From Caldisericia bacterium (GTDB lineage Bacteria > Caldisericota > Caldisericia > JAAYUI01): 64,000 nucleotides of DNA. Shown in pieces: positions 20,518 to 41,398 of the stretch; position 1 is the first letter of the stretch, and every line of letters starts with the position of its first letter. The notes under the pieces were generated by a model. It did no database searches and had not been told where the DNA came from. It saw only the letters and a list, made by a program, of their open reading frames with translations. The stretch covers positions 6,378-70,377 of the forward strand of contig JAGNLA010000009.1 in the NCBI GenBank assembly GCA_017999835.1, in the 5' to 3' direction. Position numbers and translations under genes: made by a program.

Positions 20518-21291
20518 TTAAAGACCGAGCGCTCTACGAATTGCTGATTCCAGCTGCGTCGCTTCGCTACTACCTTCAATTATCGCACCGGTATTTGTAA
20601 AATAAACCTTCCCGGTTGAGTCCAAAAGAGTGAACTGTGGAATACCTTGACCTACATAAATGCCGGCAATTTTGCTTGACTGCGGATCATGTAAAACAGG
20701 ATAACGTATTCCTTCTGAGGAGGCAAATTCCTTTGCCAATGTAAGATTGCCCGGCTCATCAACATTGATCCCAAGCACAACCAAACCATTGTCTTTATAC
20801 TTGTTGTACATGGCTATCATCGTTGATGTTGAAGCCTTACATGGCGGACACCATTGCGCCCAAACATCAATAAGATAAAGTTTCCCACCACCGTTTGAGA
20901 AGTTAACTGTTTTCCCATTTGCGTTCTTCCACTCCAAAGCACCTTCAGATTGCGATACGACTCTTGCGCTCACAACTTCCGTGAACCATTCCTTGTCTAT
21001 GTTTTCTGTCACTGGCTGGCTTGGCTCTGTTGGTTCTGTCGTTTCTGACGGAGAACTGCCCTGAGAATCTTCATTTGTTGTTTCTTCTGGTTCAGTCGTT
21101 GTGTCTTCGTTTGCCTGCTGGTTTTCCGTTGAATTGCCTGCTTTTTTGGGCTCAGACACAACTTGGTTGTTCTGCTCCGAAACCGATTGACCCTGAGAGA
21201 CCGTTTCAAGATTGACTTCAGTCTTGCCGCAGCCAGCAAACAGCACAGCAACTATCCCAACGATAAGCAACAATGATAGCATTTTTCTCAT
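20518..21291 (-). CDS. TlpA/ResA-like thiol-disulfide oxidoreductase lipoprotein
   Basis: Lipobox LFAGC, a long Ser/Thr/Glu/Gln/Pro-rich linker, thioredoxin motif DVWAQWCPPC, VLGINVD and GIPQFTLLD..GKV. Confidence 0.88.
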   Translation of the reverse strand: MRKMLSLLLIVGIVAVLFAGCGKTEVNLETVSQGQSVSEQNNQVVSEPKKAGNSTENQQANEDTTTEPEETTNEDSQGSSPSETTEPTEPSQPVTENIDKEWFTEVVSARVVSQSEGALEWKNANGKTVNFSNGGGKLYLIDVWAQWCPPCKASTSTMIAMYNKYKDNGLVVLGINVDEPGNLTLAKEFASSEGIRYPVLHDPQSSKIAGIYVGQGIPQFTLLDSTGKVYFTNTGAIIEGSSEATQLESAIRRALGL

Positions 21292-22547
21292 TTTTTCACC
21301 TCAATTGTTTTTGTGTCTTCATAATATTGAACTTGAGCTCCGAGAATGTCGGAGACAAACCTCAAAGGAACCATGGTTGTACCACTGCAGTATATTCTTG
21401 GTGGTACACTCGACGGAAGCAACGTTTTTTTGCCGTCGACATAGGCGTATTTGTCGCCAATTTTCAACTCGATTTTTTTGGGACTGGAGTAAACTATTGT
21501 GATCTTTTGAGTCGCGGAATCCCAGGTGATTTTCCCGCCCAAGGGTTCCACTACCTGCCTGACCGGAACCAGAGACCTTCCATTTTCAATTCTAACGGGG
21601 CAAGATAGGGCTTTTTTATTAGAATTGATTTCATACACATAGCTCCCGACCGTGAATCTTAAAACGGTCTGTTTTTGGGGAGAGAGGACATTTTTCACTA
21701 CACTCTTCTGGGCTCCCGTGTACGAGAAGGCATAAAGGCTACCGTTATCGGAATTGCTTGCGACCACCACTTCACTTGAGCCAATGTTCACTGTCATTGA
21801 TGCAGCTTGTGGTACTGAACCAAACTGCCTGACAAAAGTCCCTGAAGGAGTAAATGTTTTTACGGTAGAGCCATCGAGCACAAAAATCATGTCTTCACTC
21901 TCTGAAGCAACTATTGCCATTGGATTCGACAATAAGCCTTTACCAAACGAGCCATTTGTTTTTTTGTCATCTCTGTTGGCTGTTTTTACCTGGCCATCAT
22001 CGAGAATGTAGAGTTTCTTTGCGCTTGAAAAATAGGAAGCTCTGGGGTCAACCAGTCCAGTGACTTCTTTGTTCAATTTACCATAGTCGTCTATTACAAC
22101 GACCTTTTTCTGGCTCCTGTCAACAATTGACACCCAATAGAGGTCGTCAGAACGCAGATAGCAGATGTCAGTTGGGTTCTTAATCTTGCCTGATCCCGAT
22201 CCCGAACCCGCTACCTGACGGATGTACTTGTAACTGGTCTTTGTTTCGTACTCAAACAATTTAGAAGCGCCATTTCCAGAAGACACCAGGGCAATTTCGC
22301 CTGCACACCAGCAAACCGCAAGCCCGGTCATTCCGGATATCTTGCCACTGTCAAGGACTGAGGTTTCAAAGCTGTAACGTTTGTCAAAACGGTAAACGTT
22401 CTGTGTTTTTGTGTTTAAGACGAAAATATTGCCATAATGGTCGGATGAAATGACAATCGAAGCATCTATACCCCTGGCAGGTATAGATGATGTCAGCAAG
22501 GACAGAACAATGATTGTCATCAATATTTTCTTCATTTGCTTCTCCAT
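21288..22547 (-). CDS. Secreted NHL/6-bladed beta-propeller protein with C-terminal stalk (Cu amine oxidase N-terminal-like) domain
   Basis: Signal peptide (MKKILMTIIVLSLL; alternative start 22535), NHL-like repeats (GSGKIKNPTDI, SFGKGLLSNPMAI, FVRQFGS) and stalk motifs GRSLVPVRQVVEPLGG.ITWD and TMVPLRFVSDILGA.V. Confidence 0.82.
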   Translation of the reverse strand: MEKQMKKILMTIIVLSLLTSSIPARGIDASIVISSDHYGNIFVLNTKTQNVYRFDKRYSFETSVLDSGKISGMTGLAVCWCAGEIALVSSGNGASKLFEYETKTSYKYIRQVAGSGSGSGKIKNPTDICYLRSDDLYWVSIVDRSQKKVVVIDDYGKLNKEVTGLVDPRASYFSSAKKLYILDDGQVKTANRDDKKTNGSFGKGLLSNPMAIVASESEDMIFVLDGSTVKTFTPSGTFVRQFGSVPQAASMTVNIGSSEVVVASNSDNGSLYAFSYTGAQKSVVKNVLSPQKQTVLRFTVGSYVYEINSNKKALSCPVRIENGRSLVPVRQVVEPLGGKITWDSATQKITIVYSSPKKIELKIGDKYAYVDGKKTLLPSSVPPRIYCSGTTMVPLRFVSDILGAQVQYYEDTKTIEVKK

Positions 22548-22664: not shown

Positions 22665-25600
22665 TCACTTCTGATAAGTGAGTGTTATCTGTTTTGCTGT
22701 TGCGTTCCAGTCAACCTTTGCATCAAGATTTTCTGCAAACCATCTAAATGGAAGGCAGGTTTTGTTATTGATGATGGCTGGATACAAAGTACCCTTGGTA
22801 TTGTAAGTTACTTCCTTGCCGTTGATTTTGCCTTTGGTTTTATTGATCCAGAGTTCAAGAACTTTCTTGGACCCATTTGCTTTAATCTGGGTAAGGGTAA
22901 CTTTCTTTTCTTTGGCATCCCAAGCGACTTTACAATCGAGAAGTACTGCGATTTCTGCGATTGGCATGTATGTGTTGCCATTGAGCACATTGTGCGGTTT
23001 TGCAAAGGATGTTGCTGGCGCAGTTTTGAGAGGTGTTTGCTCAATACCATTGACGGTCCATGCTGTCTTGCCAATGGTCAAAACGATAACAGTCTGCTTT
23101 GGCTTGGCGGTAAAGGTGATTGTTTTCTTTGTTGTGTTTCCAGCAACGTCAGATGCAGAAACTTCAACAGTATTGACTCCATCAACCACAGTGTGGTCGA
23201 GTGTGAAGATTCCGAAATCGCCTTCAGTTGACTCGAGGTTTGCGATGCTGCCGTTGATATAAACTGTTGCTGTGGATTCGGTTTTGACTTTGATTATCAC
23301 CACATCATCCGGAGCAAGTACATCGGTTGGGGCAGGAGAGACAACTTCGATGTTTGGAGCAATGGTGTCAAGCGTGATAGTTCTCTTTACAACATTTTCG
23401 TTGCATGCCTGGTCACGTGCAATGAACTCAATTACGTTTGGACCTTCTTTGAGATTGTTGACTGTATGCTTAAATTTGAATTCTACTGAACCAGAATTGA
23501 CCGTTTCATAGATTTCGCCAGCAAGAAGTTGGATTTCTTTGCCATCAACCTTGACGAAAACAGAATCAGTTACCTGATATTTTTCGTTGTCGCCATCGGT
23601 GAGCATTTCAGTAAATCCACGTTCGCCTTCGACGGTGAAGGTCTTTTTGTTGGTTACCTTATCAGTTTTTGGTTCCGTGATTGTAATTGGCGGTAAAACT
23701 GTATCAAGGTAGAAGTCAACTGTCTGTGGTTCTTCCTTAATACCGTTGAATTCTGCCTGCCATGTGATTTTTGCTCTCTGGGAACCTGGATTGAGTCTCG
23801 ATTCACCACCGTAGATAACGGCTTTGTCTGGCTGGTTATTAAACCAGAATGTTATCTTTGCTTCTGGGTTGAGACACTCAAAACCTAGAATTGGTGGTTT
23901 GTTGAACCATTCACCGCAATTTGGTTTGTCCGGGTCTTTAAAGTAAATCCACGATTTGAGTGGAGCTGGCTCAAGGACGTATTCTTCGGACTTGATAGCT
24001 TCATCTTTGTCTGTGGAGACCAAGAGAGTGTACGAACCGTGCTTACGTGGGTTTTTGATGCCAGCGTTATTCTTGAAGTCGACCATTGACCATTCAAATG
24101 GCTTGCATGATGAATCGGTTACAAGTGTAACTTTCATACCGTTGACTGTTACCTCTTTGACCGGTTTGTCGCATATCGTGACTGCGTCAGTATTGATCGT
24201 TGCCGGAACGACTGTTCCTTCTGGGAATTCGACATAAAGATTGTCCCCTGGTGAGAGTTCGCCGCCTGCTGAGGGCTGATACTTGAACTTGTAAGATGAG
24301 ACAACTGAGCCCTGGTAATCACCAAGTTCCAGTTCGGTGATGAGCGGTTTGGATTTTACAATTTCAAACGATTCAAAATCGTATTCCTTGCCATCGACCG
24401 TGAAAGTAAGTTTGTACGTTCCAGGAACGGGATTTCTGATGCCAGCCTGAGCGTTGATCTTTACTTTGAGTGTGCCAGCGATTTCAGCTGCAGCGGTAAA
24501 GGTGAGTTTTGTTTTGTCGATACCTACTGTTCCAGAGTATGCCTTACCATTGATTTCTACCTGTTTTGCATCAATCTTTTCCGGCATCATCGTTGTATCT
24601 GGGAAGTTGACTGTAAATGTTGCACCGGCTTTGATTTTTACATCTGCTGGGAGCATACCGACTGCATAATAGGCAGCGGTTGATTTTTCAAAGTTCGGGG
24701 TGACCTTAACGGTTGGCTTAACGCCGACAATGTACGCAGCTGACTTGATGTTGTTTGGTTCCGATGATGATGATACCCAAGCAAAGTTTTCGCCTGAGGC
24801 GGATGGGTTTTTGACACCGGCTTTTTCAAGGAATGTAATGGTTCCCTGACCAAGGTTGTCAATATCGGTTGGAACGATGATTGTGATCTGGTTGTATCCT
24901 TCGCCTGCTGCAACCTGTGGTGAGCTGTTGACGAAAGCACCATTGATTTTGATTGATTTTAACGGGAATTTCTTTGGAAGAGTGAAAGAAGTTGGCAGTC
25001 TGAGCATGATTGTCGAGCTACCACCATCGAGTGCTCCGCCTTCACCGGTTTTGAAGTTTACTGAAACGGTTGTGACTGTGTCGTTGTCTGGAGGGTCAAG
25101 AACCACATTGACATCAGAAATATCAGAGCACGGAAGCATGAAAGCTTCTGACTCGACTGGTGTTGGTTCTGGGAGTGTTGCCATTGCTACTCTATATCTG
25201 CCTGGTGTAGCTGGAGCGATAAGACCTGTTGTTTTTGAGGTGTTAATGTCGATTGAGTTGTAACCTTTTCTCCAAGCTTCGATTTCGAGCGGAGTGTTGA
25301 CCTGATAAGATCTCTCTTTGCAATTGTTGATAATAATCGGGTATCCCTGGCATTCTGAGCATGGCGAGTAACCGATTGATGTCGAACGAATGATTGTTTT
25401 CATTCTGTCCATTCTCTGTGTTTGGTCACGTGGAAGACCAGGAAAGATTGTGCCGAGTTGCCAGCAACCAAGGCCTGATGGATCCTTTATCATTCTCATC
25501 TTGCCAAAGCTTGAATCGCAAACACTGCTCCATGCTGGAAGACTGTCTTTGTTGCAGTCATTGCACGGATCGAATTCTGTTGCGCCTTTTTCGTCCTTTA

Positions 25601-25994
25601 CTGCATAGACCTTACCAATATCTTTTTCTTCCTGGTTGTTGTATTTTTTGAAATACGCATCATTTGGAATGAACCTCTGATTTTCCTTCTGGCCTGTGAT
25701 TGCTGGAAGTCCATCGCAGATAGAGTCAACAACTTTCTGTGGATCTGTTGTTGATGCAGCTTCATCGATGGGGAACCACATCTTGAGCCAGTCGTGTATC
25801 TTTATGTTTACATTGTATCTCATGTAAACCTTGAAAGCTGTTAGAGTATTTGCTCTTGCAGCAGAAAGTCTGGGCTTTATCATGTTCAACTCAACGTGAA
25901 CTGGGCCAAGGGTTGCATTAATCGTTGGAATGGTCGTCAGAGCCAATCCAAAAACTAAAGTCAGAGTGATTGCGATTTTAATAATCTTCCTCAT
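22665..25994 (-). CDS. Large secreted Ig-like-repeat surface protein with stalk domain (array member 1, 1109 aa)
   Basis: Signal peptide, conserved family N-terminus LGPVHVELNMIKPRLSAARAN, three ~125-aa repeats (FP.GT..P...AGI.NP..G.Y), Ig-like domains (LKEGPNVIEFIARDQAC) and a stalk domain (TYMPIAEI, LPFRWFAENL). Confidence 0.85.
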   Translation of the reverse strand: MRKIIKIAITLTLVFGLALTTIPTINATLGPVHVELNMIKPRLSAARANTLTAFKVYMRYNVNIKIHDWLKMWFPIDEAASTTDPQKVVDSICDGLPAITGQKENQRFIPNDAYFKKYNNQEEKDIGKVYAVKDEKGATEFDPCNDCNKDSLPAWSSVCDSSFGKMRMIKDPSGLGCWQLGTIFPGLPRDQTQRMDRMKTIIRSTSIGYSPCSECQGYPIIINNCKERSYQVNTPLEIEAWRKGYNSIDINTSKTTGLIAPATPGRYRVAMATLPEPTPVESEAFMLPCSDISDVNVVLDPPDNDTVTTVSVNFKTGEGGALDGGSSTIMLRLPTSFTLPKKFPLKSIKINGAFVNSSPQVAAGEGYNQITIIVPTDIDNLGQGTITFLEKAGVKNPSASGENFAWVSSSSEPNNIKSAAYIVGVKPTVKVTPNFEKSTAAYYAVGMLPADVKIKAGATFTVNFPDTTMMPEKIDAKQVEINGKAYSGTVGIDKTKLTFTAAAEIAGTLKVKINAQAGIRNPVPGTYKLTFTVDGKEYDFESFEIVKSKPLITELELGDYQGSVVSSYKFKYQPSAGGELSPGDNLYVEFPEGTVVPATINTDAVTICDKPVKEVTVNGMKVTLVTDSSCKPFEWSMVDFKNNAGIKNPRKHGSYTLLVSTDKDEAIKSEEYVLEPAPLKSWIYFKDPDKPNCGEWFNKPPILGFECLNPEAKITFWFNNQPDKAVIYGGESRLNPGSQRAKITWQAEFNGIKEEPQTVDFYLDTVLPPITITEPKTDKVTNKKTFTVEGERGFTEMLTDGDNEKYQVTDSVFVKVDGKEIQLLAGEIYETVNSGSVEFKFKHTVNNLKEGPNVIEFIARDQACNENVVKRTITLDTIAPNIEVVSPAPTDVLAPDDVVIIKVKTESTATVYINGSIANLESTEGDFGIFTLDHTVVDGVNTVEVSASDVAGNTTKKTITFTAKPKQTVIVLTIGKTAWTVNGIEQTPLKTAPATSFAKPHNVLNGNTYMPIAEIAVLLDCKVAWDAKEKKVTLTQIKANGSKKVLELWINKTKGKINGKEVTYNTKGTLYPAIINNKTCLPFRWFAENLDAKVDWNATAKQITLTYQK

Positions 25995-26199
25995 CCGATA
26001 CTCCTTTCAGGGACAAAAAAACTGCGACAAGTCTAACATGATAACCATTCATTCAAATTAAAACTTGTCACCTGCAAAGATTTAATCAGATCAACTCAAA
26101 ATTCCATTTAAGAAAGTCCTAAAACGAGTTAATTCAGGATTAAGAATTGTTAGTTCCCATATTGGTTTTTTTGGTACACTCTTATGCTTGGAGGTTTTT

Positions 26200-27237
26200 A
26201 TGAAAATGAAAACTTTAATAAACGTGATGATTGCAGCATTGATGGTCGTAACACTGGCATCCTGCGGAGAGGCTCCGCCTGAAGAATTGTCGTTCATAAC
26301 TGGCACCGTAGTTGAAAAAATTACCAGGGCTCCAATTCCAAACATTGTAATAAATATTGATGGTCAGTCGGTTACAACGTCGTCAGACGGCAGATATATC
26401 GTATCCAGGCTTGAAAAAGGCTCAAAGCATGAGATCGAGTGCATCAATAGCAAGTACAATGATTTCAAGCTCACTGATGTCGTTGCCGTGTACCCGAGTG
26501 CAACACAAGACATAGAGCTTGAAATAAAAACTCTAGAATCACCGACTATCCCATCGATTTCATCCATATCAACCAAACAGCTCAAGTCTTTCGATTATGT
26601 ATTAAACTTTGGCGTTGACGCAAACCAGATCACATTTGAAGTCAATGGCAGCTACACTGCTCCAAATTCATACACAATCAACATGAAGCAGTTCAAACAA
26701 CAACAGATACAAGTCGGACCTGACGATCAAAAGAAGGAAAGCCCAACAATCAAATTGACGGAAATCAATGGCAATCAATGGATTGATGAGGGAGACGGGT
26801 ACACTGTGGTTCCCAACGATCAATCCAGAGCTGGGTTTAGGGATATGTTTAATATCATTGAATTGAGCAATTCAATGATAACAAAAGCTCTTAAGAATGT
26901 GAAAAATCTTACCGAGGATGGCAATTCCCAAATTGGTGGAATCAACTGTAAAAGATACAGGGGAATTACTGTATTTGATACAGAGAGATCAACTGAAACC
27001 AAGACAGGAAAAAAAGTGATCACCGATAAAGTCCTGTGTGACTTTAACATGGCTGTGGCAGTAGACCAGCAGTATGGCAATGCCCCTGTCGATGTCGAGC
27101 TCATGCTCTACTATAAAGATCTCATGGTCAGAACATACACCCACTTCACTTTGAGCAACCTCAACAACCCAATCGTTATCCAAGTCCCTGAGGTAAAAGA
27201 TTCTTCAAATAAGATTGAGATCAAGAACGCTCCGTGA
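26200..27237 (+). CDS. Lipoprotein with carboxypeptidase-regulatory-like domain and possible LolA/LppX-like C-terminal fold
   Basis: GGAGG RBS, lipobox LASC, ITGTVVEKITRAPIPNIVINIDGQSVTTSSDGRY.V..L, and beta-rich C-terminus with GNSQIGGINCKRYRG. Confidence 0.7.
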   Translation: MKMKTLINVMIAALMVVTLASCGEAPPEELSFITGTVVEKITRAPIPNIVINIDGQSVTTSSDGRYIVSRLEKGSKHEIECINSKYNDFKLTDVVAVYPSATQDIELEIKTLESPTIPSISSISTKQLKSFDYVLNFGVDANQITFEVNGSYTAPNSYTINMKQFKQQQIQVGPDDQKKESPTIKLTEINGNQWIDEGDGYTVVPNDQSRAGFRDMFNIIELSNSMITKALKNVKNLTEDGNSQIGGINCKRYRGITVFDTERSTETKTGKKVITDKVLCDFNMAVAVDQQYGNAPVDVELMLYYKDLMVRTYTHFTLSNLNNPIVIQVPEVKDSSNKIEIKNAP

Positions 27238-27301: not shown

Positions 27302-29284
27302 TTATTGATTCATCAATACAAATTCGATATAGTCATTTTTGCTCGTGCTCATGACAATCTCATCTTCAGCGCTAATTTCACTTGTCAATTCGATTATTGT
27401 TTTTATCTTTAATTTTGACATTTTTAAAACTGAAATAGGCGTTGGCACATCAAAAATTAACCTTTGACCATCAACTCTTGCAGACTGAGACAAGACCTGG
27501 TCAATTGTAATGTTGTCTGATTTGATAAGATTTGACAACTTAAAGGCTTTTGGAAACCTCAAAGACACCCAGTCCCCAACGTCAAGATTTCCAAATGATG
27601 ATGGTCTGAATTCAAATTCGATCGAAATTATCATATCGTTCCTTCTGACCACTTTCAGATTGGCAATTCTTGGCTTTGCGGCTTTGATGAAATAATCCAG
27701 CATTTCTGGCTTGCTCCCATTTATCGAAACCGCAAAATAATAAAAGCCGGTCGAAGGCGTGGTCAGTTTGGCCGACTCATCGATGTAAATCATAGCAACG
27801 CCTGTCAAAACCTCTGGAATGGTGAACTTTAAAATGTCGTTTGAGAATTCTGCTGGCTTTGTTAACGGTTTGCCATCCACCAAAACGCTCTTGCCATTTA
27901 TACTTCTGTCTTTTGAAAAACCGGTTGGAAATTTGATTGAGATTTCTGAGTTTTTGTCAACCTTGTCCATGGGGGTGGATATCGAAAAAGCCAAAGAGCA
28001 TGAAGTGAATTCCTCGTTTGGAACTATTTGGACACCTTTGACATCTAGCAGTTTTAAAGGTTCCGATCGCACAAACTCCGGCTCCGACGAGGTCATGACC
28101 TCGATAAAAACTTCTCCTCCGGTTGGCTTGATGCCAAGCAGGAACCGTTTGTCAAAAGATATTTTTGTTTCCGACATCGAATTGATGTTTACCGGAACGA
28201 TCATTGTCAATTCAAGATAATCGCCTTTGTTTTCAACAGTGGGGGAACCGAGTAAAATGCAGTTATTGATCATTATCATCTTTTTATTAGGAAGAACTGT
28301 CATTGACAGGTTTTTTGGAAAACGGACGGTAATTGTCGAAAGTTTTGCATCCAAAGCCCCACCTTCACCAGTTATAAACGTAATCTCAGGCGATTTTTCT
28401 TCGTCTGTTATTGTGAATCCTGAGCATTTGACATCTGAAACTTTCGAGCAGGGTAAAACATAGGCTTCAGACTCGACGGGTTCCGGTTCAGGAGTTGTTG
28501 CCACAGCAAGCCTGTATCTTCCTGGAGTAGCTGGTGAGATGATGCCAGTCTCAATCATTGAATCGTAGCTAAGAGCATTGTAACCTGCTCTCCAAGTTTC
28601 GACTTCCATAGTTGGCCTACAGATTATTGAGCGCTGAGCATCGTCGTTGACCAATCCAGGGTAGCCCATCTCATAGCACCAATGATACCCAACTCCTTGT
28701 CTTCTGCTTATTTTAATCAGTTTTTCTCCTCTCTTATCCCTGTCAATTGGCAAAGCAGGCATGATCGTTCCCATCAACCACCAGCCCAATCCTGATTCGT
28801 CCTTGACGGCACCGTTGCTGTCCTTTTGAAGCAGGTTCTCAATGAATTCATCCAGTTGCGCATCATTGCCAGGTTCAACAGCCCAATCAATGGCTCCGTT
28901 TGATCCTTCAATCTTATATAATTTATATATTGTTTTTTCTTTGGACTGGGGGTATTTCTTGAAATATTTTGAGTTTGGAAGAAACCTCGGCGATTCCAAT
29001 TCACCGTTGAGAGGAGGCAAACCTTCACAAATAGAACTTTTCAGGTTTTCGCTAACAATATATTCGCTTGTTGGATACCAAACCCTTATGGTGTCATGAA
29101 TCTTAATGTCTTTATTGAACCTAAAGGTAACACTCATTGCGTTTGCTTTGTTTGCCCGTGCAGGTTTGCCCAAATTCCAGTATGTCTTTAGGCTGATATT
29201 GACTGGTCCAACAACTGCTGAAACTGAGTTAGATATACAGGTCATTGCCAATAAAATGACAATAATTCTAATTGTCGTCTTCAC
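27302..29284 (-). CDS. Secreted array member 2 (660 aa, no stalk domain)
   Basis: GTG start after GGAGG, signal peptide, family motifs VGPV...ARANK, IKIHD, CEGLP, ESGLGWWLMGT and PATPGRYRLAVATTPEPEPVESE. Ends after the third Ig-like repeat. Confidence 0.8.
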   Translation of the reverse strand: MKTTIRIIVILLAMTCISNSVSAVVGPVNISLKTYWNLGKPARANKANAMSVTFRFNKDIKIHDTIRVWYPTSEYIVSENLKSSICEGLPPLNGELESPRFLPNSKYFKKYPQSKEKTIYKLYKIEGSNGAIDWAVEPGNDAQLDEFIENLLQKDSNGAVKDESGLGWWLMGTIMPALPIDRDKRGEKLIKISRRQGVGYHWCYEMGYPGLVNDDAQRSIICRPTMEVETWRAGYNALSYDSMIETGIISPATPGRYRLAVATTPEPEPVESEAYVLPCSKVSDVKCSGFTITDEEKSPEITFITGEGGALDAKLSTITVRFPKNLSMTVLPNKKMIMINNCILLGSPTVENKGDYLELTMIVPVNINSMSETKISFDKRFLLGIKPTGGEVFIEVMTSSEPEFVRSEPLKLLDVKGVQIVPNEEFTSCSLAFSISTPMDKVDKNSEISIKFPTGFSKDRSINGKSVLVDGKPLTKPAEFSNDILKFTIPEVLTGVAMIYIDESAKLTTPSTGFYYFAVSINGSKPEMLDYFIKAAKPRIANLKVVRRNDMIISIEFEFRPSSFGNLDVGDWVSLRFPKAFKLSNLIKSDNITIDQVLSQSARVDGQRLIFDVPTPISVLKMSKLKIKTIIELTSEISAEDEIVMSTSKNDYIEFVLMNQ

Positions 29285-31289
29285 TGTATGCCTCCTCGGT
29301 GCCGAGTGATTCATCAATGTTATCGCCTTTTGAGGTGGAAAGACACATCAGCTCGCTTCCAGTCAGATACTGTGGCAATCTCATGCCAATGCTGATTACA
29401 TACTTGTATTTGCCAGAAACGACTTGTTTGACCGGTGACTTAAAAATCAGTCTTGTGCCTTCGACTTTTGCATTTTCAACCTTAGCCTTGTCAACCGTAA
29501 TCCATTTCCTGTCCAATGATTTTGGCAGAATGAAACTTTGAGGAAACTGCAATGAAATCTCATCACCCAGGTCAAGATTACCAAAGGATGATGGCTGAAA
29601 ATCAAAAGTGACGTTGGCATAAGTATTGGGCTTTTTTGACGACATGACCAGATTCCCAATCCTGGCCTTGGCTGGCTGAATGTAGATGTCATCAAACGAA
29701 TATCTATCCGAGCCAATCTCAAGCTTTACCAAGTAAAAACCAACCGATGGATTAACGATGGCGCAATTTTGGAGAAGGGCGACAACCAGCTTGTTTTTGA
29801 TGTCTGAAGGTGCAGACATCTCAATGGTGTTACCCGAAATTTTTGGGTTAGTAGCAGGATGCACGCCGTTTATCAGAATGTCGTTGTTGGTGATTTTTTC
29901 GCCATGTGCAAAAGCCTCAGGCAAAATTATTTTGAGTGGCGTTTGAGGAGGATAAGTTTTGCCATTATCAAGCAAAAGCCTTATGCTAATGGTGCTTTCA
30001 CGGTATTCCTCAGGAGGTTGAATGGCTAAACTCGTTTCTTTCAGTTTCAGCAGCGCCTGGGATTTCACAAAATTTGGCTCGGAGGAAGTAGAAACCTCCA
30101 CAAAACAATCCTTCTCGTCCGGATTGTAGGTTGTGTGAGTAAAAATGTCAAAAACAACATCGACTTTTGAAGAATTGTTGACATCCACAGGTGAAACAAG
30201 TTTTACAACGGTCTGACCATCAATTTTTGTAATCTCTGGATCAGATTCTAGCCTTGTCCCGTTCACCTTTATTAGGCGTTTTGAGAACTTTGGGGATATT
30301 GAAAATTGCTCTGGCAACTTGACGAAAATGGTTGAATATTTGTTGTCCAGTGCTCCGCCTTCACCTGTCCGAAACGAGACCGTGAAAGGATTTTTAGTGG
30401 AAAAACCAAATTCTGTTGCGTTGCAAACAACATTGCTGACATCCGAGCACGGCAGGATGAATGATTCGGACTCAACTGGAACAGGTTCAGGCCTGGTTGC
30501 AACAGCTACACGGTAACGTCCGGGAGTGGCAGGAAAAACAATCCCAATATCTTTTGTCACATTGACATCAGCCACGTTATAGCCTTTCCTCCAGGGCTCG
30601 AGTTCAAAAGGATTGTTTACGGAAATTGATCTTTCTTTGCAATTGCTGTTAATATGATAGTTGATGGTTAAGCAAGCACATGGATAGCCAATATTGATGT
30701 GATACCTAATCTTTTTCATGAATTCTATTCTTTTTTCTACATCCCGAGGCAAGGCAGGCAAAACCGTTCCAAGCATCCAATATCCCAATCCTGATGAGTC
30801 TGATATTAACTTTGGACTTGAAGAATCAAGGTGACATGCATCGCGATTATCCGATTTCTCATCTTCAAGATCTATGAAACTGACTTCATGCATATGTTCT
30901 CCTGAAGCACGGTACAACTTACCAATCTCTTTTTCTGGTGAATCTGGGTATTTTTCAAAATAGGCTTTGTTGGGGACAAACCTTGGCGATTCAAGACCAC
31001 CAGTAATTTTTGGCAAGCCATCGCAGAAGTTTTTCTCCAGCTGTTCCTTAGTTTGATAAGACATGTTTTCGTCCAAAGGCAGCCAAACCTTAACCCAATC
31101 GTGAATTTTTATGTTTTTTGTGTACACAAAGCTAACCACGAAATTGTTGGCTGCATTCACCCTTGAAGAGCCAATGGTTTTATACCATCTGCCAAAATCA
31201 AGCTTCACCGGCCCAACAGTGGCCCTTCCCAAAGTTTGACTCCACAGAATAATCACCAGCGCAAGAGAAATGAGTACAATTCTATTCAT
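29268..31289 (-). CDS. Secreted array member 3 (673 aa, no stalk domain)
   Basis: Signal peptide, TVGPV, NIKIHDWVKVWLP, FCDGLPKI, SSGLGYWMLGT and PATPGRYRVAVAT.PEPVPVESESFILPCSD. Ends after the third repeat. Confidence 0.82.
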   Translation of the reverse strand: MNRIVLISLALVIILWSQTLGRATVGPVKLDFGRWYKTIGSSRVNAANNFVVSFVYTKNIKIHDWVKVWLPLDENMSYQTKEQLEKNFCDGLPKITGGLESPRFVPNKAYFEKYPDSPEKEIGKLYRASGEHMHEVSFIDLEDEKSDNRDACHLDSSSPKLISDSSGLGYWMLGTVLPALPRDVEKRIEFMKKIRYHINIGYPCACLTINYHINSNCKERSISVNNPFELEPWRKGYNVADVNVTKDIGIVFPATPGRYRVAVATRPEPVPVESESFILPCSDVSNVVCNATEFGFSTKNPFTVSFRTGEGGALDNKYSTIFVKLPEQFSISPKFSKRLIKVNGTRLESDPEITKIDGQTVVKLVSPVDVNNSSKVDVVFDIFTHTTYNPDEKDCFVEVSTSSEPNFVKSQALLKLKETSLAIQPPEEYRESTISIRLLLDNGKTYPPQTPLKIILPEAFAHGEKITNNDILINGVHPATNPKISGNTIEMSAPSDIKNKLVVALLQNCAIVNPSVGFYLVKLEIGSDRYSFDDIYIQPAKARIGNLVMSSKKPNTYANVTFDFQPSSFGNLDLGDEISLQFPQSFILPKSLDRKWITVDKAKVENAKVEGTRLIFKSPVKQVVSGKYKYVISIGMRLPQYLTGSELMCLSTSKGDNIDESLGTEEAYSEDDN

Positions 31290-31301: not shown

Positions 31302-34300
31302 CTATTTTGAGTACTTCAACGTTATTTGTTTTGTTCCTGAATCAAAACTTACTATCGTGCCAAGGTTTTCAGCCACAAACCTCAAAGGAACCATCGTCGT
31401 TCCATTGATTGCGACAAGACAAATCGAATCATTCTTTCCGATTTTCACCTGCTTGCCATTTACCAATGCGGTGCTTTTGCCCAGCCACATAATGATTGTG
31501 TTGATGATTTCATCGCCATTGCGCTGGAGAATTGTGACTGACTTGTCAATTTGGTTCCACTCAACGCTGCAACCAAGGAAAGGCGCCAAAGGCTTGAACG
31601 GAACAAATGTTGTGCCATTAAGTGCTTTCAACTTCACATCCTTGAATGTGGCTGTTGGCGCACAAACAAGCTTTGGCTGTTTTTCAAAGTTCACATCCCA
31701 TGAAGGTTTGTCGAGAGTGAGATTGATTGTGTTTGTACTTGTTGAGGCAAAGACAATTTCTTTGGTTGTGGTGTTACCTGCAAAGTCGGTTACTTTCAAA
31801 ACAATCCTGTTTTTGCCTTGCACGACAGAATACATTGTGTAGAAAATCGAGGTTTTCCCATCGTTTGACTCCTCGGGTATAACTTTATTATTGCAATAGG
31901 CGTACATACCACGCTCAGTTTTGAATGACACTTTCACAAGGTCACCTGGAAAACATTTGTATGATTGAGGACAAGAAACCATTTCGATTTGTGGTGGGGT
32001 TGTGTCGAGAATTATTTTCAAGTGCCTGATTGTTTCGTTGCATGCCAGGCTCCTGGCAACAACTTCAACTTTGTTTAATCCAAGGTTAAGTGGGAGTTTA
32101 TAGGAATAATTCAAATCTCGTTTGTCAAATTCGGTTTTTTTAACCAAACCGCCTTCAAAAACACGTTCTTCATTTCCATTAAACCTTACAAAAACAGAGT
32201 CAATCAGCACATACGACTGTTCGTCGCCAAAATAGGAAACAATCCTTGCCTCTGCCTGGCCAGACAAGATTTTTATTGGCTGATTTGTTATTGTAGAGGA
32301 TCTGTTGGAAAGACGAATATATGGTCTGTCAGTATCCAGAAACAAATCTTGAGATTTTGGCTCTTCTTTGTCACCATTAAAAGACGAACTCCAGCCAATG
32401 TTTATAACCTCGCATTCAGGCATAAGATTGAACGCTCCATCAAACAGCTTTGCCTTGTCCAGCTGCCCGTTGTACCAAAAGAAAATATCCGCCTCAGGAT
32501 TGAGACATTCAAAAGATATTGTTGGTGGATATCCATACCACCCACTTTCGCAGGGATTTGGCTGCTGATTGTTGACAATCAGTTTTGTCACAAGCGGCGC
32601 AGGAATCAGCGTCAGTTTGTCAGAAATAGCCTGTATCCCATCCCTTGTTCTGACTTTGATGAAATAGTCGTCTTTTTCACGTGGGTTTGTCACAAAACAC
32701 TTAAGCTGAACCCTTGCCGGTTTCCAAAAATCAATAACTCTGGTTAAGGTTATCCAGATTGTTCGATCCTCTGTTCGAACTGATTTTGCTTTAGCACTGT
32801 CAATACTAACTTCCTCTGCCAAAACCTGATAGGGGAGAGTTGAACCTTTTGGAAACTCGACACCGATTTCTTCTCCTGATTTTATTGGTTTTTGCGATGA
32901 TGGCCTAAAGATGAACGAAACCTCGGTAGACATTGCAGCTTGCTGTTTTGAAAGCTCAAGTTGATAAATGTGCGACTTTGAGGCGAATATGTCAAACGGT
33001 TCGCTGTCGATATCATCATCTCCAACTTTTACTTCGAAATCGTAAATGCCAGTCTGAGGACTGACAATTCCGGCCTTGCTTGAGATCGAAACAATGCATT
33101 TCTTTGAAAGTTCAAATTGGGATTTCAATGTGATTGTTCTTTTTTCTTTGTCGATTACAACATCAGAATCGAGACCGTTGACTTGGAAACAACCTAGCTT
33201 GGGTTTGTCCGGGAGAACAAATCCATTGTCAAAAGTAATTTCTATCTCGGTTTTTTGCTGATAAACCTTCCCGTCTCTTAGAGGTAGAGTCAAGAATATA
33301 TCGGCGTTTGCATACTCTTCGGCTGGATACAAAACCATTCTGGCTGTTTTAGAATCCTCAACTTCTTCGGCTTTGATGAAGTTGCCTTCAGAGCTTGTTG
33401 AAACCATTATCTCGTTATTGTTTCTTTCCAGAATGGAGAAGAAGCTTGGGTTGGAAAGAAAATCCACCTTCACTTTTCCAAAATTATCAACATCGACAGG
33501 CGATGTTATCTCCAATATTTGTTGACCATCACTGGTGTTGGTAGTTTTTGCCTGCTTGACGACAACGTCATTGACGAGAATATTCTTAAATGGGACACTT
33601 GTCATGCTAAAACCTTTTGGCAGTTTCAGCTTTATTGTCGACATCCCCTTGTCCAAAGCCCCGCCTTCACTTGTCATAAAACTGACTGAAAAAACCGTAA
33701 ACTGCTTTCTGATTGGGAATTGTTCAAAAGTAACATCAGATATATCCGAGCAAGGCAAAATGAACGATTCAGACTCGACTGGCTCAGGTTCGGGTTCTGT
33801 TGCCACAGAAACCCTGTATCGGCCAGGGGTTGCGGGTGCAACAATGCCTGTATATGAAGAAGTGTTCAAATCAATCGAGTTATAGCCTTTCCTCCAAGCT
33901 TCAACCTCTAGCGGTGCAATAAAATTCAGCATTCTTTGAGTACAGGTGCTTGTCATCGAGAATGGCTGACAATCACAGGGGTTGTAACCGATTGAAATTG
34001 ACATGCCAATCCTCCGGCTCCATTCTTTTCTTTCTGTGTCGTCCACAGGTATTGCCGGCATCACTGTTCCAAGCATCCAACAGCCCAAACCTGAAGGATC
34101 TTTTACTATTCTCCGTTTGTTGTCTTTCTCGCCACAAACATCACTCCAGTCGGCAGCACCTGACGGTTCGGGGTTGTCGTAAAGAATCCCAGGTTTGTTA
34201 TACTCAGCTACTGTAAAAAGTTGTCTTTTTGTTGCCAATTTCGAATTGGGATATTTCTCGAAAAACTTCTTGTTTGGCAGAAATCTTGGATTATCGATGT

Positions 34301-34589
34301 TTTCATCAATTTTTGGTAAACCATCACAGATGTTTTTGAGCAAATCCTCAGGATTGGCGTATTCAACCGCTTCAGACGACGGAAACCAAACCTTTATCCA
34401 GTCATGAATTTTGATGTTTACATTATAACGCATATAAACCTTGAAGCTTGTCACCTGGTTTGCTCTGGCATGGGAATATTTTGGCTTTATCATATTCAGC
34501 TCAACTCTGACCGGGCCAACTGTTGCCATCGCAGGAATGGCTGATATTGTCATTGCAACAAGAATCGCAACCGCCAAAAGTTTCCGCAT
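31302..34589 (-). CDS. Secreted array member 4 (1095 aa, with stalk domain)
   Basis: Signal peptide, family N-terminal motifs, repeats, Ig-like domains and stalk motifs TFVPFKPL and TTMVPLRFVAENLG. Confidence 0.85.
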   Translation of the reverse strand: MRKLLAVAILVAMTISAIPAMATVGPVRVELNMIKPKYSHARANQVTSFKVYMRYNVNIKIHDWIKVWFPSSEAVEYANPEDLLKNICDGLPKIDENIDNPRFLPNKKFFEKYPNSKLATKRQLFTVAEYNKPGILYDNPEPSGAADWSDVCGEKDNKRRIVKDPSGLGCWMLGTVMPAIPVDDTERKEWSRRIGMSISIGYNPCDCQPFSMTSTCTQRMLNFIAPLEVEAWRKGYNSIDLNTSSYTGIVAPATPGRYRVSVATEPEPEPVESESFILPCSDISDVTFEQFPIRKQFTVFSVSFMTSEGGALDKGMSTIKLKLPKGFSMTSVPFKNILVNDVVVKQAKTTNTSDGQQILEITSPVDVDNFGKVKVDFLSNPSFFSILERNNNEIMVSTSSEGNFIKAEEVEDSKTARMVLYPAEEYANADIFLTLPLRDGKVYQQKTEIEITFDNGFVLPDKPKLGCFQVNGLDSDVVIDKEKRTITLKSQFELSKKCIVSISSKAGIVSPQTGIYDFEVKVGDDDIDSEPFDIFASKSHIYQLELSKQQAAMSTEVSFIFRPSSQKPIKSGEEIGVEFPKGSTLPYQVLAEEVSIDSAKAKSVRTEDRTIWITLTRVIDFWKPARVQLKCFVTNPREKDDYFIKVRTRDGIQAISDKLTLIPAPLVTKLIVNNQQPNPCESGWYGYPPTISFECLNPEADIFFWYNGQLDKAKLFDGAFNLMPECEVINIGWSSSFNGDKEEPKSQDLFLDTDRPYIRLSNRSSTITNQPIKILSGQAEARIVSYFGDEQSYVLIDSVFVRFNGNEERVFEGGLVKKTEFDKRDLNYSYKLPLNLGLNKVEVVARSLACNETIRHLKIILDTTPPQIEMVSCPQSYKCFPGDLVKVSFKTERGMYAYCNNKVIPEESNDGKTSIFYTMYSVVQGKNRIVLKVTDFAGNTTTKEIVFASTSTNTINLTLDKPSWDVNFEKQPKLVCAPTATFKDVKLKALNGTTFVPFKPLAPFLGCSVEWNQIDKSVTILQRNGDEIINTIIMWLGKSTALVNGKQVKIGKNDSICLVAINGTTMVPLRFVAENLGTIVSFDSGTKQITLKYSK

Positions 34590-34593
34590 GATT

Positions 34594-34727
34594 CCCCCCT
34601 ATTTTGGATAAGTCAGCGTTATCTGTTTGGTTTTGGCATCGAAGACGACACTGGCGCCGAGGTTTTCAGCCACAAACCTGAGCGGAAGCATGGTTTTGCC
34701 GTTTATTGACACTGGATAAAGCGTTCC
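34594..34727. repeat. 134-bp near-identical direct repeat, copy 1 (3' end of member 5)
   Basis: Matches 37898..38031 at 133 of 134 positions by manual comparison. Confidence 0.9.
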
Positions 34728-37700
34728 CTTTGGGTCGATGTTGACGGTTTTCCCATCGATCTTAGCTTTTGTTTTTTCAAGCCAAAGCTCGATGATTTTC
34801 TTCTCATTGTTTCTCAATTTTTGTTCTAGAGTAACTTTCTTTTCTTTTACATCCCAGAAAACAAGGCTGTCAAAGAAAGGTACCAATTGCGCAACCGGCA
34901 TGTATGTGCTACCGTTCAAATCCTTATATCTGCTGTCTTTGAAAGTTGCAGTTGGAGGAACTGCAAGTGGTGTCTGGACTTTGCCATTGACCATCCATTC
35001 TTTTTTGTCGAGTGTCAGGACGATGATGGTTTTCTTTGGCTTTGCTACAATTTTGTAGCTGAGGCTGCGATTGTTACCAGACTGGTCGGTCACGGCAATG
35101 CTAACAATATTGTCGCCTTCGACAAGACTTATGTTGGCAGAGAAAACCCCAACTCCATCTTCTGACGAAATGATCTCGGCAGACATTCCGTTTATCTGCA
35201 CAGTCGCGCTTGCCTCAGTTCTGATAAGAACATTGACATTGTCGCCATCAATAAATATTTCATCATTTTTTGGGCTCACCATTTCAGCTTTTGGCGGTTG
35301 TGTGTCTAGTGTTATCTTCTTTTTCACCACTGTTTCGTTGCATGCCTGGTCGCGGCCTATTATTTCAACAATGTTTTCTCCTTCATTCAGTTGGATGACA
35401 TGGTCGAATTTGTATTTTATTGAGCCTGAATTTTTTGTTTCATATATTTGGCCTTCCAGCAACAAGGTTTCTTTACCATTGAATTTTACAAAGATTGAAT
35501 CGGTTGCCTGATACTTATTATTGTCCCCATCGGTAAGCATTTCGGTAAAACCGCGTTCGCCTTCAATTTTATAGTTTTTATGGTTTGTCATCTCACCTGT
35601 TTTAGGTTTTGTCACTCTTACCGACGGCGGCATGGTATCCAGATTGAAATCATAAGCCCTTGGCTCCTCTTTTACTCCATTAAACTCTGCCTGCCAGGTT
35701 ATGACTGTTCTCATGGAACCTGGGTTGAGCCTTGATTCGCCACCGTAGATAACGGCTTTGTCTGGCTGGTTATTAAACCAGAATGTTATTTTTGCTTCTG
35801 GGTTCAGACAGTCAAAACCTAGAATTGGTGGTTTGTTGAACCAATCACCACAGTTTGGCTTGTCCGGGTCCAAAAAGTATATCCAAGATTTGAGTGGGGC
35901 TGGTTCGAGGACATATTCTTCAGAAACCATCGGCTCAGCCTTGCCAATGATAACTTTGAGAGTATATGAACCGTGTTTTCTAGGATTTTTTATGCCAATG
36001 TCGATGGAAACATCAACTGGTTTGGCTGATGTAATCTCAACTGGAGTCGCAATAGTCAGCGTTGTTGAGTCAGCCTTGGCCGAAATGGTTTTCTTCCGAT
36101 TGACGGTTATATCTGCGATATCAAAGCTTTTTGGCAAGACCGTCCCCTGAGGAAACTCCACCATGAAAGTATCGCCAACTGACAACGGGGTTTGCGAAGG
36201 AGCCACTAAACTGAAGAAATATTTGGACTCTACACTCCCCTGGTAGTCTGACAATTCGAGAAGCGTTATTAAACCAACTGATGGCTTTATCTCAAACTCT
36301 CCGCAACCGTAGCTGCCAGAAGGAGTAGTCAACGTTATGGAGTGTGTGCCAGCTTTTGGGTTTCTGATTCCAGCATTTTTGTTAATTGTGATCTGGACAT
36401 AGTACTGGATGTTTGCCGGTATCGTGATTTTCAAAGAGTTGCCGTCAATATCTATGTGTTTTGCCCTCAAACCTGAAACATAGACGTTACCAGGTTCCAT
36501 TGTTTTTGGGAACTTGAAACCTTCAGAAAAATTCAAGCTTATGACCGATCCGGCTTTCAAAATTTCGCCATCCGGAAGAATCGCTCTGCAAAAAATGGAT
36601 GAATACTTGTATTCGTGATCAGGGGTCACAACGGCCAATGGCGTGGAACCAAGTGCCACCGGTTTTGAACTGATGTAGTTAGGCTCAGAAGTGGTTGAAA
36701 CTTCTATCGATATTGGTTTTTTTGAAGGTATGACTCTGATGTTTGTTGAGCTCGAAAACTCAATCGAGGTCTGACCAAAGTTCGCCACGTCCGTCGGAAC
36801 AATTATCTTGATTACCGTTCCGTCTGCGCTTTTCTCGACTTTGGGTGATGAACTGACGAAAGCGCCGTTGAACTTTATCGATTTTTCTGGAAACTTGTCC
36901 GGAGCGAATATGCCAGGCGGGAACTTGATATTGACCACTGACGATCCGCCGTCCAGCGCTCCACCCTCGCCAACTTTGAAGCTAACATTCAATATTGTCT
37001 CGGCATTATTGTTTGGATAATCCTGAAGCACAACATCGGACACATCAGAGCAAGGAAGCACGAAGGCTTCCGACTCCACAGGTACAGGTTCAGGTTCGGT
37101 GGCAACGGCTAGCCTGTACCTGCCAGGAGTAGCCGGGGCGATGATGCCGGTGGTTTTGGAAGTGTTGAAATCGATTGAGTTGTAGCCTTTTCGCCAAGCC
37201 TCTAATTCTACTTCTTCAAAATATGTCAATGTTGCTTGTTTGCAGCTATTCTCAAGCAATACATATTCACAACCACAGGAGCTGTAACCAAGCAACACTG
37301 AACGGTAGACAGTTCTCATCCTTTTGCTTCTTTGATCCTTGTCATAAGGCATTGGTGGAAATATTGTTCCCAACATCCAACAGCCTAGACCAGACGGATC
37401 CTTGACCAATCTGAGATTTTTGGTATCTCCTCCACAAACATCATGCCAATCTTTGACATTATCCAAATCTGGTAATTTGAAGAATTCAGCATTACTGTAG
37501 TAGTCAAGAATCTTGTAAAACGTGCTGTAATCTTTGAGTTCTGAGTTTTCATATTTTTTAAAATACTTTTCATTTGGCACAAATCTGGGGTGTTCCCTCA
37601 CACCGGTTATTGGAGGCAGACCATCACATATCTGCCTGATAACCTCTTCCGGGTTGTCCGACTGGATGCTTTCATAAATCGGAAACCAGACTTTTAGCCA

Positions 37701-37889
37701 ATTATGAGCCTTTATATTGACATCGTATCGTATATATATCTTGAACGCTGTAAGGGAGTTCGCCCTTGCTGCTGAAAGCCTCGGTTTTATCATGTTCAGT
37801 TCTACATGTATTGGCCCAAGTACGGCAAAGGTTGCCGCCGTGTTCCCAAAAACAATCACCAACACCAGCAATAGTAATATTTTCTTCAT
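34599..37889 (-). CDS. Secreted array member 5 (1096 aa, with stalk domain)
   Basis: Same architecture as members 1, 4 and 6; ends KTMLPLRFVAENLGASVVFDAKTKQITLTYPK. Confidence 0.85.
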   Translation of the reverse strand: MKKILLLLVLVIVFGNTAATFAVLGPIHVELNMIKPRLSAARANSLTAFKIYIRYDVNIKAHNWLKVWFPIYESIQSDNPEEVIRQICDGLPPITGVREHPRFVPNEKYFKKYENSELKDYSTFYKILDYYSNAEFFKLPDLDNVKDWHDVCGGDTKNLRLVKDPSGLGCWMLGTIFPPMPYDKDQRSKRMRTVYRSVLLGYSSCGCEYVLLENSCKQATLTYFEEVELEAWRKGYNSIDFNTSKTTGIIAPATPGRYRLAVATEPEPVPVESEAFVLPCSDVSDVVLQDYPNNNAETILNVSFKVGEGGALDGGSSVVNIKFPPGIFAPDKFPEKSIKFNGAFVSSSPKVEKSADGTVIKIIVPTDVANFGQTSIEFSSSTNIRVIPSKKPISIEVSTTSEPNYISSKPVALGSTPLAVVTPDHEYKYSSIFCRAILPDGEILKAGSVISLNFSEGFKFPKTMEPGNVYVSGLRAKHIDIDGNSLKITIPANIQYYVQITINKNAGIRNPKAGTHSITLTTPSGSYGCGEFEIKPSVGLITLLELSDYQGSVESKYFFSLVAPSQTPLSVGDTFMVEFPQGTVLPKSFDIADITVNRKKTISAKADSTTLTIATPVEITSAKPVDVSIDIGIKNPRKHGSYTLKVIIGKAEPMVSEEYVLEPAPLKSWIYFLDPDKPNCGDWFNKPPILGFDCLNPEAKITFWFNNQPDKAVIYGGESRLNPGSMRTVITWQAEFNGVKEEPRAYDFNLDTMPPSVRVTKPKTGEMTNHKNYKIEGERGFTEMLTDGDNNKYQATDSIFVKFNGKETLLLEGQIYETKNSGSIKYKFDHVIQLNEGENIVEIIGRDQACNETVVKKKITLDTQPPKAEMVSPKNDEIFIDGDNVNVLIRTEASATVQINGMSAEIISSEDGVGVFSANISLVEGDNIVSIAVTDQSGNNRSLSYKIVAKPKKTIIVLTLDKKEWMVNGKVQTPLAVPPTATFKDSRYKDLNGSTYMPVAQLVPFFDSLVFWDVKEKKVTLEQKLRNNEKKIIELWLEKTKAKIDGKTVNIDPKGTLYPVSINGKTMLPLRFVAENLGASVVFDAKTKQITLTYPK

Positions 37890-37897
37890 ACTCTCAG

Positions 37898-38031
37898 CCC
37901 CCCTATTTTGGATAAGTCAGCGTTATCTGTTTGGTTTTGGCATCGAAGACAACACTGGCGCCGAGGTTTTCAGCCACAAACCTGAGCGGAAGCATGGTTT
38001 TGCCGTTTATTGACACTGGATAAAGCGTTCC
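37898..38031. repeat. 134-bp near-identical direct repeat, copy 2 (3' end of member 6)
   Basis: Matches 34594..34727; the single difference is gacGac versus gacAac. Confidence 0.9.
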
Positions 38032-41205: not shown

Positions 41206-41398
41206 ATTTAGCACCCCTTTTGCTGTGATGGGTTTATTTTCACCTAATCCGGTTAAATCGAAAACAATTACCGATAAAGCATCTATCGGTATTGTTAAGG
41301 TTGGAATCAAAGAATGTCCTATAAATGGTAACTTTACAAAATAAGAAAATGAAAGTTTGTTGCCAGATGCAAACAAATCCTTAAACTATTTCATCAAA

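Follow-up and report, generated by a model that had tools for sequence, protein, structure and literature searches.

Locus and domain architecture

The 64,000-nucleotide stretch of DNA from a Caldisericia bacterium analysed here (the window) carries, according to its list of open reading frames (ORFs), six paralogous genes, m1-m6, as a tandem array on the minus strand, and a more distant member, m7, at its end. The element in question lies in the N-terminal head of the encoded proteins and was flagged in m1 at 25310-25645 of the minus strand, corresponding to amino acids (aa) 117-228, where a first-pass annotation had proposed a hypervariable, disulfide-stapled insert that diversifies in the manner of a complementarity-determining region (CDR). 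From the alignments described below, the flagged stretch appears to be a composite, consisting of the C-terminal two-thirds of an inserted subdomain and an older, family-wide helix/CxxC knuckle.

All seven members start with a signal-peptide-like N-terminus, as judged by eye from the translations. Pfam matches were confined to the C-terminal parts of m1-m7, leaving the head and the three following repeats unmatched; for these domains, neither a Pfam or NCBIfam family nor a sequence relative in the PDB was found. Amino acids 998-1104 of m1 were assigned to PF07833, the Cu_amine_oxidN1 stalk domain (E 9e-18), which was recovered from m1, m4, m5, m6 and m7 at 57-73 bits against a gathering cut-off of 24.2 and was missing from m2 and m3. 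Glucodextran_B scored above its gathering score in three members, m1 included, and the weak matches to the Ig-like Big_13 stayed below theirs. A Pfam scan of the family members revealed neither SLH nor any other known S-layer domain.

Borders of the insert

In agreement with the first-pass annotation, which had given ~100-110 aa for the flagged span, 108-112 aa were found in all six paralogs; these share the core DPSGLG(C)W.LGT..P.LP.D..R, the six GY-Cys strings quoted for the knuckle are all correct, and the span is rich in Cys, holding 7 in its 112 aa in m1 versus 16 in the whole 1109-aa protein. The borders, in contrast, had to be redrawn. Comparison by hhalign of the insert-less profile A4 (12 insert-less N-domains) with the family alignment A2 (32 sequences, insert-bearing apart from the short m7 fragment) revealed one gap of ~103 residues between 'WFPID' and 'LGTIFPGLP' (probability 100%, E 2e-43), and MAFFT --add in two modes as well as hhalign of the m7 ortholog agreed on this single gap. 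The real indel comprises aa 78-180 of m1, and only 57% of the flagged span falls inside it. The true insert of m1 holds CDGLP with the invariant C93, PRFIPN.AYFKKY, the variable Cys-rich loop and DPSGLGCW; the motifs that had been taken for its conserved left flank (CDGLP, PRFVPN.KYF.KY) lie within it, whereas the GY-Cys knuckle, counted before as part of the gained insert, is ancestral and shared by the insert-less family.

For m7, only ~10 aa had been assigned to the position of the insert, with alignment on both sides; this comparison was mis-registered. As seen in the window, m7 breaks off at '...GLPQIKTNKRTNPKY', and its first visible residues, GLPQIKTN, were paired by both hhalign and MAFFT with GYPIIINN of m1, to which they correspond, and not with CDGLPAITG. 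The lost N-terminus is supplied by the syntenic m7 ortholog P0029 (locus L001, ENA), which reads ...VEIHGWITIVFPDDWTMPDVAKPGPGISEAESSELERILNSIYLATSPCTKCQGLPVIKTNKRTN... and ...ELERILNSIYLATSPCTKCQGLPVIKTNKRTN...; when P0029 was aligned to the family profile by hhalign, ELERILNSIYLATSPCTKCQGLPVIKTN of the ortholog was matched to RMKTIIRSTSIGYSPCSECQGYPIIINN of the profile. Because hhalign and MAFFT align them to aa 191-227 of m1, the helix and the knuckle are present in m7. The gene of the m7 ortholog (L001:9995-13191; ENA contig ERZ21878447:ctg42508l) is split by a frameshift into 168 aa and 895 aa, which is probably a long-read assembly error; the window cut lies at 63900-64000.

Table 1. Positions of the m1-m7 genes and of head features in the window
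Feature	Position	Strand	Description
m1	22665-25994	-	1109-aa secreted multidomain protein; ORF and translation
Part order of m1			signal peptide, N-terminal head, 3 repeat-type beta-sandwich domains, Ig-like domains, C-terminal stalk (Cu_amine_oxidN1)
m2	27302-29317	-	671-aa paralog; C-terminal half absent
m3	29268-31289	-	673-aa paralog; C-terminal half absent
m4	31302-34589	-	insert-bearing paralog
m5	34599-37889	-	insert-bearing paralog
m6	37903-41208	-	insert-bearing paralog
m7	61197-64000	-	distant insert-less member; truncated at the window end, directly behind the CxxC knuckle
Head domain of m1 (aa 28-292)	25119-25913	-	probable repeat-derived beta-sandwich bearing the insert
True insert of m1 (aa 78-180, ~103 aa)	25455-25763	-	small alpha/beta subdomain (predicted)
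Most variable part of the m1 insert (aa 130-170)	25485-25607	-	loop; Cys number varies
Insert of m2 (aa 85-182)	28772-29065	-	
Insert of m3 (aa 74-173)	30771-31070	-	
Insert of m4 (aa 73-173)	34071-34373	-	
Insert of m5 (aa 73-173)	37371-37673	-	
Insert of m6 (aa 76-176, counted from codon 41206-41208)	40681-40983	-	
Helix and CxxC knuckle of m1 (aa 191-227), QRMDRMKTIIRSTSIGYSPCSECQGYPIIINNCKE	25314-25424	-	ancestral, outside the insert
C93 codon (ICDGLP, in the insert)	25716-25718	-	invariant in 58/58 insert-bearing N-domains; position absent in insert-less proteins
C289 codon (LPCSD, end of N-domain)	25128-25130	-	invariant in 58/58 insert-bearing domains; not Cys in insert-less ones

Predicted fold of head and insert

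AlphaFold2 modelled the head of m1 (aa 28-292) with a predicted local distance difference test (pLDDT) score of 87 and a predicted template modelling (pTM) score of 0.80, and analysis of this model with DSSP revealed mostly beta-strand outside the insert. When the stretch comprising insert, helix and knuckle (aa 75-227) was excised and modelled separately, a pLDDT of 86.6 and a pTM of 0.81 were obtained. With the context model as query, Foldseek returned generic tandem-Ig matches only, with probabilities of up to 1.0, template modelling (TM) scores of <= 0.28 and sequence identities of 6-14%; for the excised stretch, no match in the PDB or Pfam was found by Foldseek and by sequence and profile searches. 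The models suggest that the insert is a ~103-aa subdomain without a detectable structural relative.

Wider family and ancestry

Word-indexed searches for m7-type homologs gave almost nothing, and an exhaustive hidden Markov model search was needed, by which 775 proteins sharing the repeat module were retrieved (E <= 1e-3). These include giants of 2-4.7 kaa (thousand amino acids) with 10-19 module copies, ~35 proteins with a full insert-bearing head, and many m7-type proteins in which the match begins only at the helix. Each of m1-m7 has three copies of the domain-2-like module, and relatives have up to 19. Copies of a ~135-aa module (FP.G...P ... GI.NP..G.Y ... SSEP..V.S), for which there is no Pfam model, number 15-19 in P0030, P0031, P0035, P0036, P0037 and P0043 (2.8-4.7 kaa).

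All 28 close homologs carry the insert, and all 12 insert-less relatives in A4 (P0134, P0152, P0104, P0097 and others), together with the m7 ortholog, possess the helix and a knuckle of the 'SPCxxCQGLP' type. The motif S-x-C-x-x-C-Q-G-x-P, whose m1 equivalent is at 25344-25373, is invariant in 12/12 insert-less heads, as are two His (H62 and H143 in the numbering of the m7 ortholog). In the insert-bearing subfamily, it is kept in m1 (SPCSECQGYP) and degraded in m2-m6 and several homologs; what had seemed a hypervariable knuckle is, on the evidence of these alignments, the relaxation of an ancestral motif.

Along its entire length, the insert-less N-domain proved homologous to the downstream repeat module (hhalign probability 98%, E 7e-13), which bears out the annotated resemblance between the host domain and the downstream repeats. 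Because the repeat module itself lacks the insert, this homology identifies the insert-less state as ancestral and the insert as gained. Of the earlier notion that a beta-sandwich module gained a subdomain, the insertion is therefore supported, but the knuckle has to be placed outside the gained part.

The GTDB genomes contained 21 related loci, 2-4 per genome. By their record titles, most are metagenome-assembled genomes (MAGs) of Caldisericota, Caldisericia or Caldisericales; a different phylum appears in none of the titles, and three read simply 'uncultured bacterium'. The few repeat-module relatives with a name are called 'stalk domain-containing protein [Caldisericia bacterium]'. These titles point to a surface-protein family restricted to Caldisericota. 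Comparing locus L002, a syntenic ENA contig, with 34599-41376 of the window, protein identities were 76-88% for most of the neighbouring conserved genes and 54-58% for a beta-propeller protein, and only 47-56% for family members in matching positions, which may reflect fast divergence or paralog turnover of whole proteins.

Variation and selection

The proposal of a CDR-like binding subdomain, diversifying by positive selection or a dedicated mutagenic mechanism, could draw on two loop segments that differ strongly among the six paralogs (pairwise identity 0.21-0.30), on the Cys-richness of the region and on the lack of a homolog of known function. The insert did not, however, prove to be hypervariable. 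Mean pairwise identity among the six paralogs was 0.34 in the flagged span, within the range of the repeat domains (0.36, 0.25 and 0.30), and 0.51 and 0.74 in the two scaffold halves; likewise, the entropy over 31 homologs was 1.90 bits for the span versus 2.20 bits for domain 2, with 2.35 bits in the most variable loop and 1.1-1.4 bits in the scaffold. It is the host scaffold that is unusually conserved, and the insert is variable only relative to it.

Since the N-domains of m1-m6 are 40-64% identical and their synonymous sites are saturated (proportion of synonymous differences, pS, 0.6-0.9), these paralogs are ancient. The ratio of non-synonymous to synonymous substitution rates (dN/dS) among them was dropped as meaningless at this degree of saturation, and ortholog pairs from GTDB genomes were used instead. 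Four pairs were unsaturated, with an overall dS of 0.27-0.69: L003/L004, which are orthologs of m1, and L007/L008, L007/L022 and L008/L022. Their dN/dS amounted to 0.01-0.05 in the true insert, 0.02-0.07 in the variable loop and 0.03-0.08 in domain 2, and helix and knuckle were 100% identical in all four pairs. The dN/dS comparison proposed with the first-pass annotation thus yielded values of 0.01-0.07, far below 1. Recent gene conversion was considered as the origin of conserved blocks common to m1, m5 and m6 and was ruled out, pS being 0.6-0.7 there too.

The window sequence is present in wastewater, sludge and biofilm metagenomes of several studies. In strain X15, 0.9% of the bases differ over the insert as compared to 4-9% in the C-terminal half, and all 12 variants listed for X15 and X19 in 25310-25766 are synonymous, the few non-synonymous ones being located in domains 2-3. 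A strain contig from run X12 showed ~30 mostly synonymous differences within 256 nt (24897-25152), at the end of the head and the start of domain 2, with none listed upstream through the insert; this block looks like a recombination tract between alleles. A template repeat of a diversity-generating retroelement (DGR) was not found in the window, where the only matches detected were in-register ones between paralogs, at 70-86% over <= 80 nt; no dedicated search for a reverse transcriptase was made. With variation no higher than that of the repeats, dN/dS values of 0.01-0.07 and only synonymous changes among the variants listed for 25310-25766, we conclude that CDR-like diversification is refuted.

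Cysteines of the head

A survey of 58 non-redundant insert-bearing heads revealed C93 and C289 to be the only invariant Cys; all others vary, with totals of 4-12 per domain that are odd in 28 of the 58. Complete disulfide stapling cannot hold with such odd totals, and the attribute 'disulfide-stapled' is unproven. As C93 and C289 are jointly present in the insert-bearing and jointly absent in the insert-less forms, they are the putative partners of a disulfide tying the insert to the last strand or the linker of the head. The assignment of further pairs from covariation was abandoned, as the signals were weak and confounded by phylogeny (phi 0.70 for C81-C166, 0.54 for C144-C177 and 0.48 for C159-C225). 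At the knuckle, haem attachment via CxxCH was ruled out, there being no His after the CxxC, and so was a C3-type thioester (CGEQ), the Gln of which is not conserved in the insert-bearing paralogs.

Expression and neighbouring genes

In metatranscriptome X19, the contig depth was 41-65 over m1, 0 over m2 and m3, 0-8 over m4-m6 and 13-18 over m7, with 0-27 elsewhere. The maximum depth of 75-155 was reached over the stretch at 45.4-47.4 kb, which holds a ribosomal-protein gene, and m1 came second. Thus, m1 is the best-expressed paralog of the cluster, contig depth from one run being weak evidence; expression of the cluster may be dominated by a single paralog, the others being transcribed weakly.

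Both m2 and m3 end after the fourth domain, and the end of the m3 ORF overlaps the start of the m2 ORF by 50 nt. Other assemblies contain orthologs of equal length (P0052 for m2; P0045, 673 aa, for m3), and the short forms are therefore considered genuine genes. The longest ORF of m6 begins with a TTG at 41376, overlapping the start of the divergent MatE gene (41357), and would extend the protein by 56 residues ahead of the signal peptide; the ATG at 41203-41205 (MKGKLGILV...) is probably the true start.

Directly downstream of m1, the minus strand encodes a 419-aa protein with two Cu_amine_oxidN1 stalk domains (21288-22547; PF07833 above the gathering score). Its stop overlaps the start of the next gene (20518-21291, minus strand), two genes downstream of m1; the product of this next gene is a lipoprotein in which a long acidic linker is combined with a TlpA/ResA-like thioredoxin-fold domain whose active site reads WCPPC. 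Between m1 and m2, a 349-aa lipoprotein-like ORF is located on the plus strand (26188-27237), with a weak CarboxypepD_reg-like match of 27.4 bits, below the cut-off of 32.3, and a metatranscriptome depth of 18-28. A 438-aa protein without a Pfam match is encoded at 45868-47184 on the plus strand; it adjoins a gene that matches one assigned to PF00829 (ribosomal protein L21) on the syntenic contig.

Interpretation

What has to be accounted for is a subdomain with defined borders that is absent from the ancestral form, conserved between orthologs and strains, found in a family restricted to Caldisericota and contained in an excised stretch that is modelled with confidence. We favour a reading according to which, in one subfamily, a ~103-aa alpha/beta subdomain would have been inserted into the loop that follows the 'WFP' strand in an N-terminal beta-sandwich, itself presumably a specialised copy of the protein's own tandem repeat module, and each ancient paralog would have retained its own version under strong purifying selection. 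Since the insert differs between the old paralogs and is tightly conserved within each, it is taken for a fixed specificity or contact surface and not for an immune-like loop; it would provide the head with a paralog-specific surface, most likely a determinant of binding or contact specificity, with no continuous diversification. As an overall description, a constrained, paralog-specific head subdomain of Caldisericota fibrillar-adhesin or S-layer-like proteins is rather probable.

Several points weigh against this reading. The surface location, the anchoring via the stalk domain and the role in binding or contact are deduced from sequence, and the AlphaFold2 models are built on a 27-32-sequence alignment and are not experimental structures. 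Region-averaged dN/dS may hide a few positively selected sites, and the unsaturated pairs come from only two independent orthogroups. The expression data are contig depths from a single metatranscriptome. Finally, a bond between C93 and C289, if formed, would place the insert near the junction of the head with domain 2 and not at the extreme tip.

According to the main rival, the insert would serve the structure or assembly of an S-layer or sheath protein, either by forming contacts within a lattice or oligomer or by bracing the junction of the head with domain 2, the paralogs being alternative lattice subunits without an external ligand. Such a role would fit the depth over m1 in X19, which is exceeded in the window only by that over the stretch at 45.4-47.4 kb, the very strong purifying selection and the invariant C93/C289 pair as a link from the insert to the last strand and the linker. 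The phylum's only cultured member, moreover, has been described with a sheath-like outer envelope. The Pfam scan, however, gave no SLH or other known S-layer domain, m2 and m3 are conserved yet lack the C-terminal half, and the giant relatives with 10-19 repeats resemble fibres, not lattices. We consider an assembly role unlikely, albeit a serious competitor.

A more far-reaching proposal would have the insert be an undescribed fold, acting as the paralog-specific recognition head of major Caldisericota envelope fibre or S-layer proteins and functionally replacing, in this subfamily, a metal/redox centre formed by the family-wide H...SxCxxCQGxP...H; it is regarded as doubtful. A metal- or redox-active site in the Cys-rich region itself, ranked as a minor rival, could take the form of a Zn/Fe site made up of the CxxC knuckle and neighbouring Cys/His, or of a redox-active dithiol, with the variable Cys as ligands. 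The invariant H62, C107, C110 and H143 of the insert-less family constitute a C2H2-like set, domains with an odd number of Cys are frequent, the host is a sludge anaerobe, and the thioredoxin-fold lipoprotein with its CPPC lies two genes downstream of m1. This lipoprotein may be an envelope thiol-redox partner of the Cys-rich heads, which fits extracytoplasmic thiol chemistry but proves nothing. A metal or redox role appears improbable, however: among the insert-bearing paralogs, neither of the two His is conserved and CxxC is absent from several members (m2, P0004 and P0009/11/13), no CxxCH is present, and no known metal-site family was matched. Least tenable is the CDR-like subdomain, to which the selection and strain data, the ancestral and, in the insert-less family, invariant knuckle, the odd Cys numbers and the lack of a template-like repeat in the window leave hardly any chance.

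With the fixed, paralog-specific head surface as the favoured reading, the analysis defines a phylum-restricted family characterised by a repeat module that lacks annotation, a head in which a CxxCQG motif is invariant and, in one subfamily, the insert, and the identification of m1 as a well-expressed member provides concrete constructs for structural and binding studies. Caldisericota are poorly studied: most representatives are MAGs recovered from anaerobic digesters, and there is essentially one cultured species. To our knowledge, nothing is known about their envelope proteins, and a literature search on those of Caldisericum and Caldisericota retrieved nothing relevant. Surface proteins in which a beta-sandwich has received an inserted domain are known; the present subdomain and the phylum-restricted family lack prior annotation. 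As a methodological lesson, the divergence of old paralogs combined with a cut at the window edge can mimic CDR-like hypervariability.

Comparison with known systems

With the targets of DGRs, which have C-terminal lectin-fold regions and template/variable repeats, the proteins share a presumed surface location and a locally variable region; they differ in that no template/variable repeat pair is present in the window, the variation lies between old paralogs and not between alleles, and the region is N-terminal. Likewise, the knob domains of bovine ultralong CDR-H3, and CDRs in general, are only analogous: a Cys-rich extra lobe on a beta-sandwich, with Cys number and position differing between copies, is common to both, whereas here there is no signal of diversification (dN/dS 0.01-0.07), the version of each paralog is conserved, the Cys are often odd in number and the knuckle is ancestral.

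The Gram-positive multi-Ig surface proteins retrieved by Foldseek, namely PrgB with its Ig-like domains (8beg), SdrC/ClfB and the SpaA pilin, resemble the present proteins in the predicted tandem beta-sandwich architecture, with Foldseek probabilities of up to 1.0 but TM scores of <= 0.28 and identities of 6-14%, and none of them has the insert. 'Stalk domain-containing' proteins with PF07833 are found in Firmicutes and other anaerobes. The C-terminal PF07833 of m1, m4-m7 and the gene at 21288-22547 is shared with these Cu_amine_oxidN1 proteins; the name, however, covers only the C-terminal ~100 aa, and no family model exists for the head, the insert and the repeat module.

Fibrillar adhesins, in the outline given by Monzon et al. 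(10.1101/2020.12.07.414375 / PMC8286594), are surface proteins whose terminal adhesive domain is borne by a stalk built from tandemly repeated domains. Unlike in these, no recognised adhesive domain was found in the head by comparison with Pfam, NCBIfam and the PDB, any binding role here being putative, and anchoring would rely on the C-terminal Cu_amine_oxidN1 stalk domain in place of LPXTG, SLH or a beta-barrel. Common to both are the signal peptide, the specialisation of a terminal domain, homologous beta-sandwich/Ig-like repeats in tandem, multi-paralog families and giants with 10-19 repeats; the order of parts matches that of fibrillar-adhesin or S-layer-like envelope proteins.

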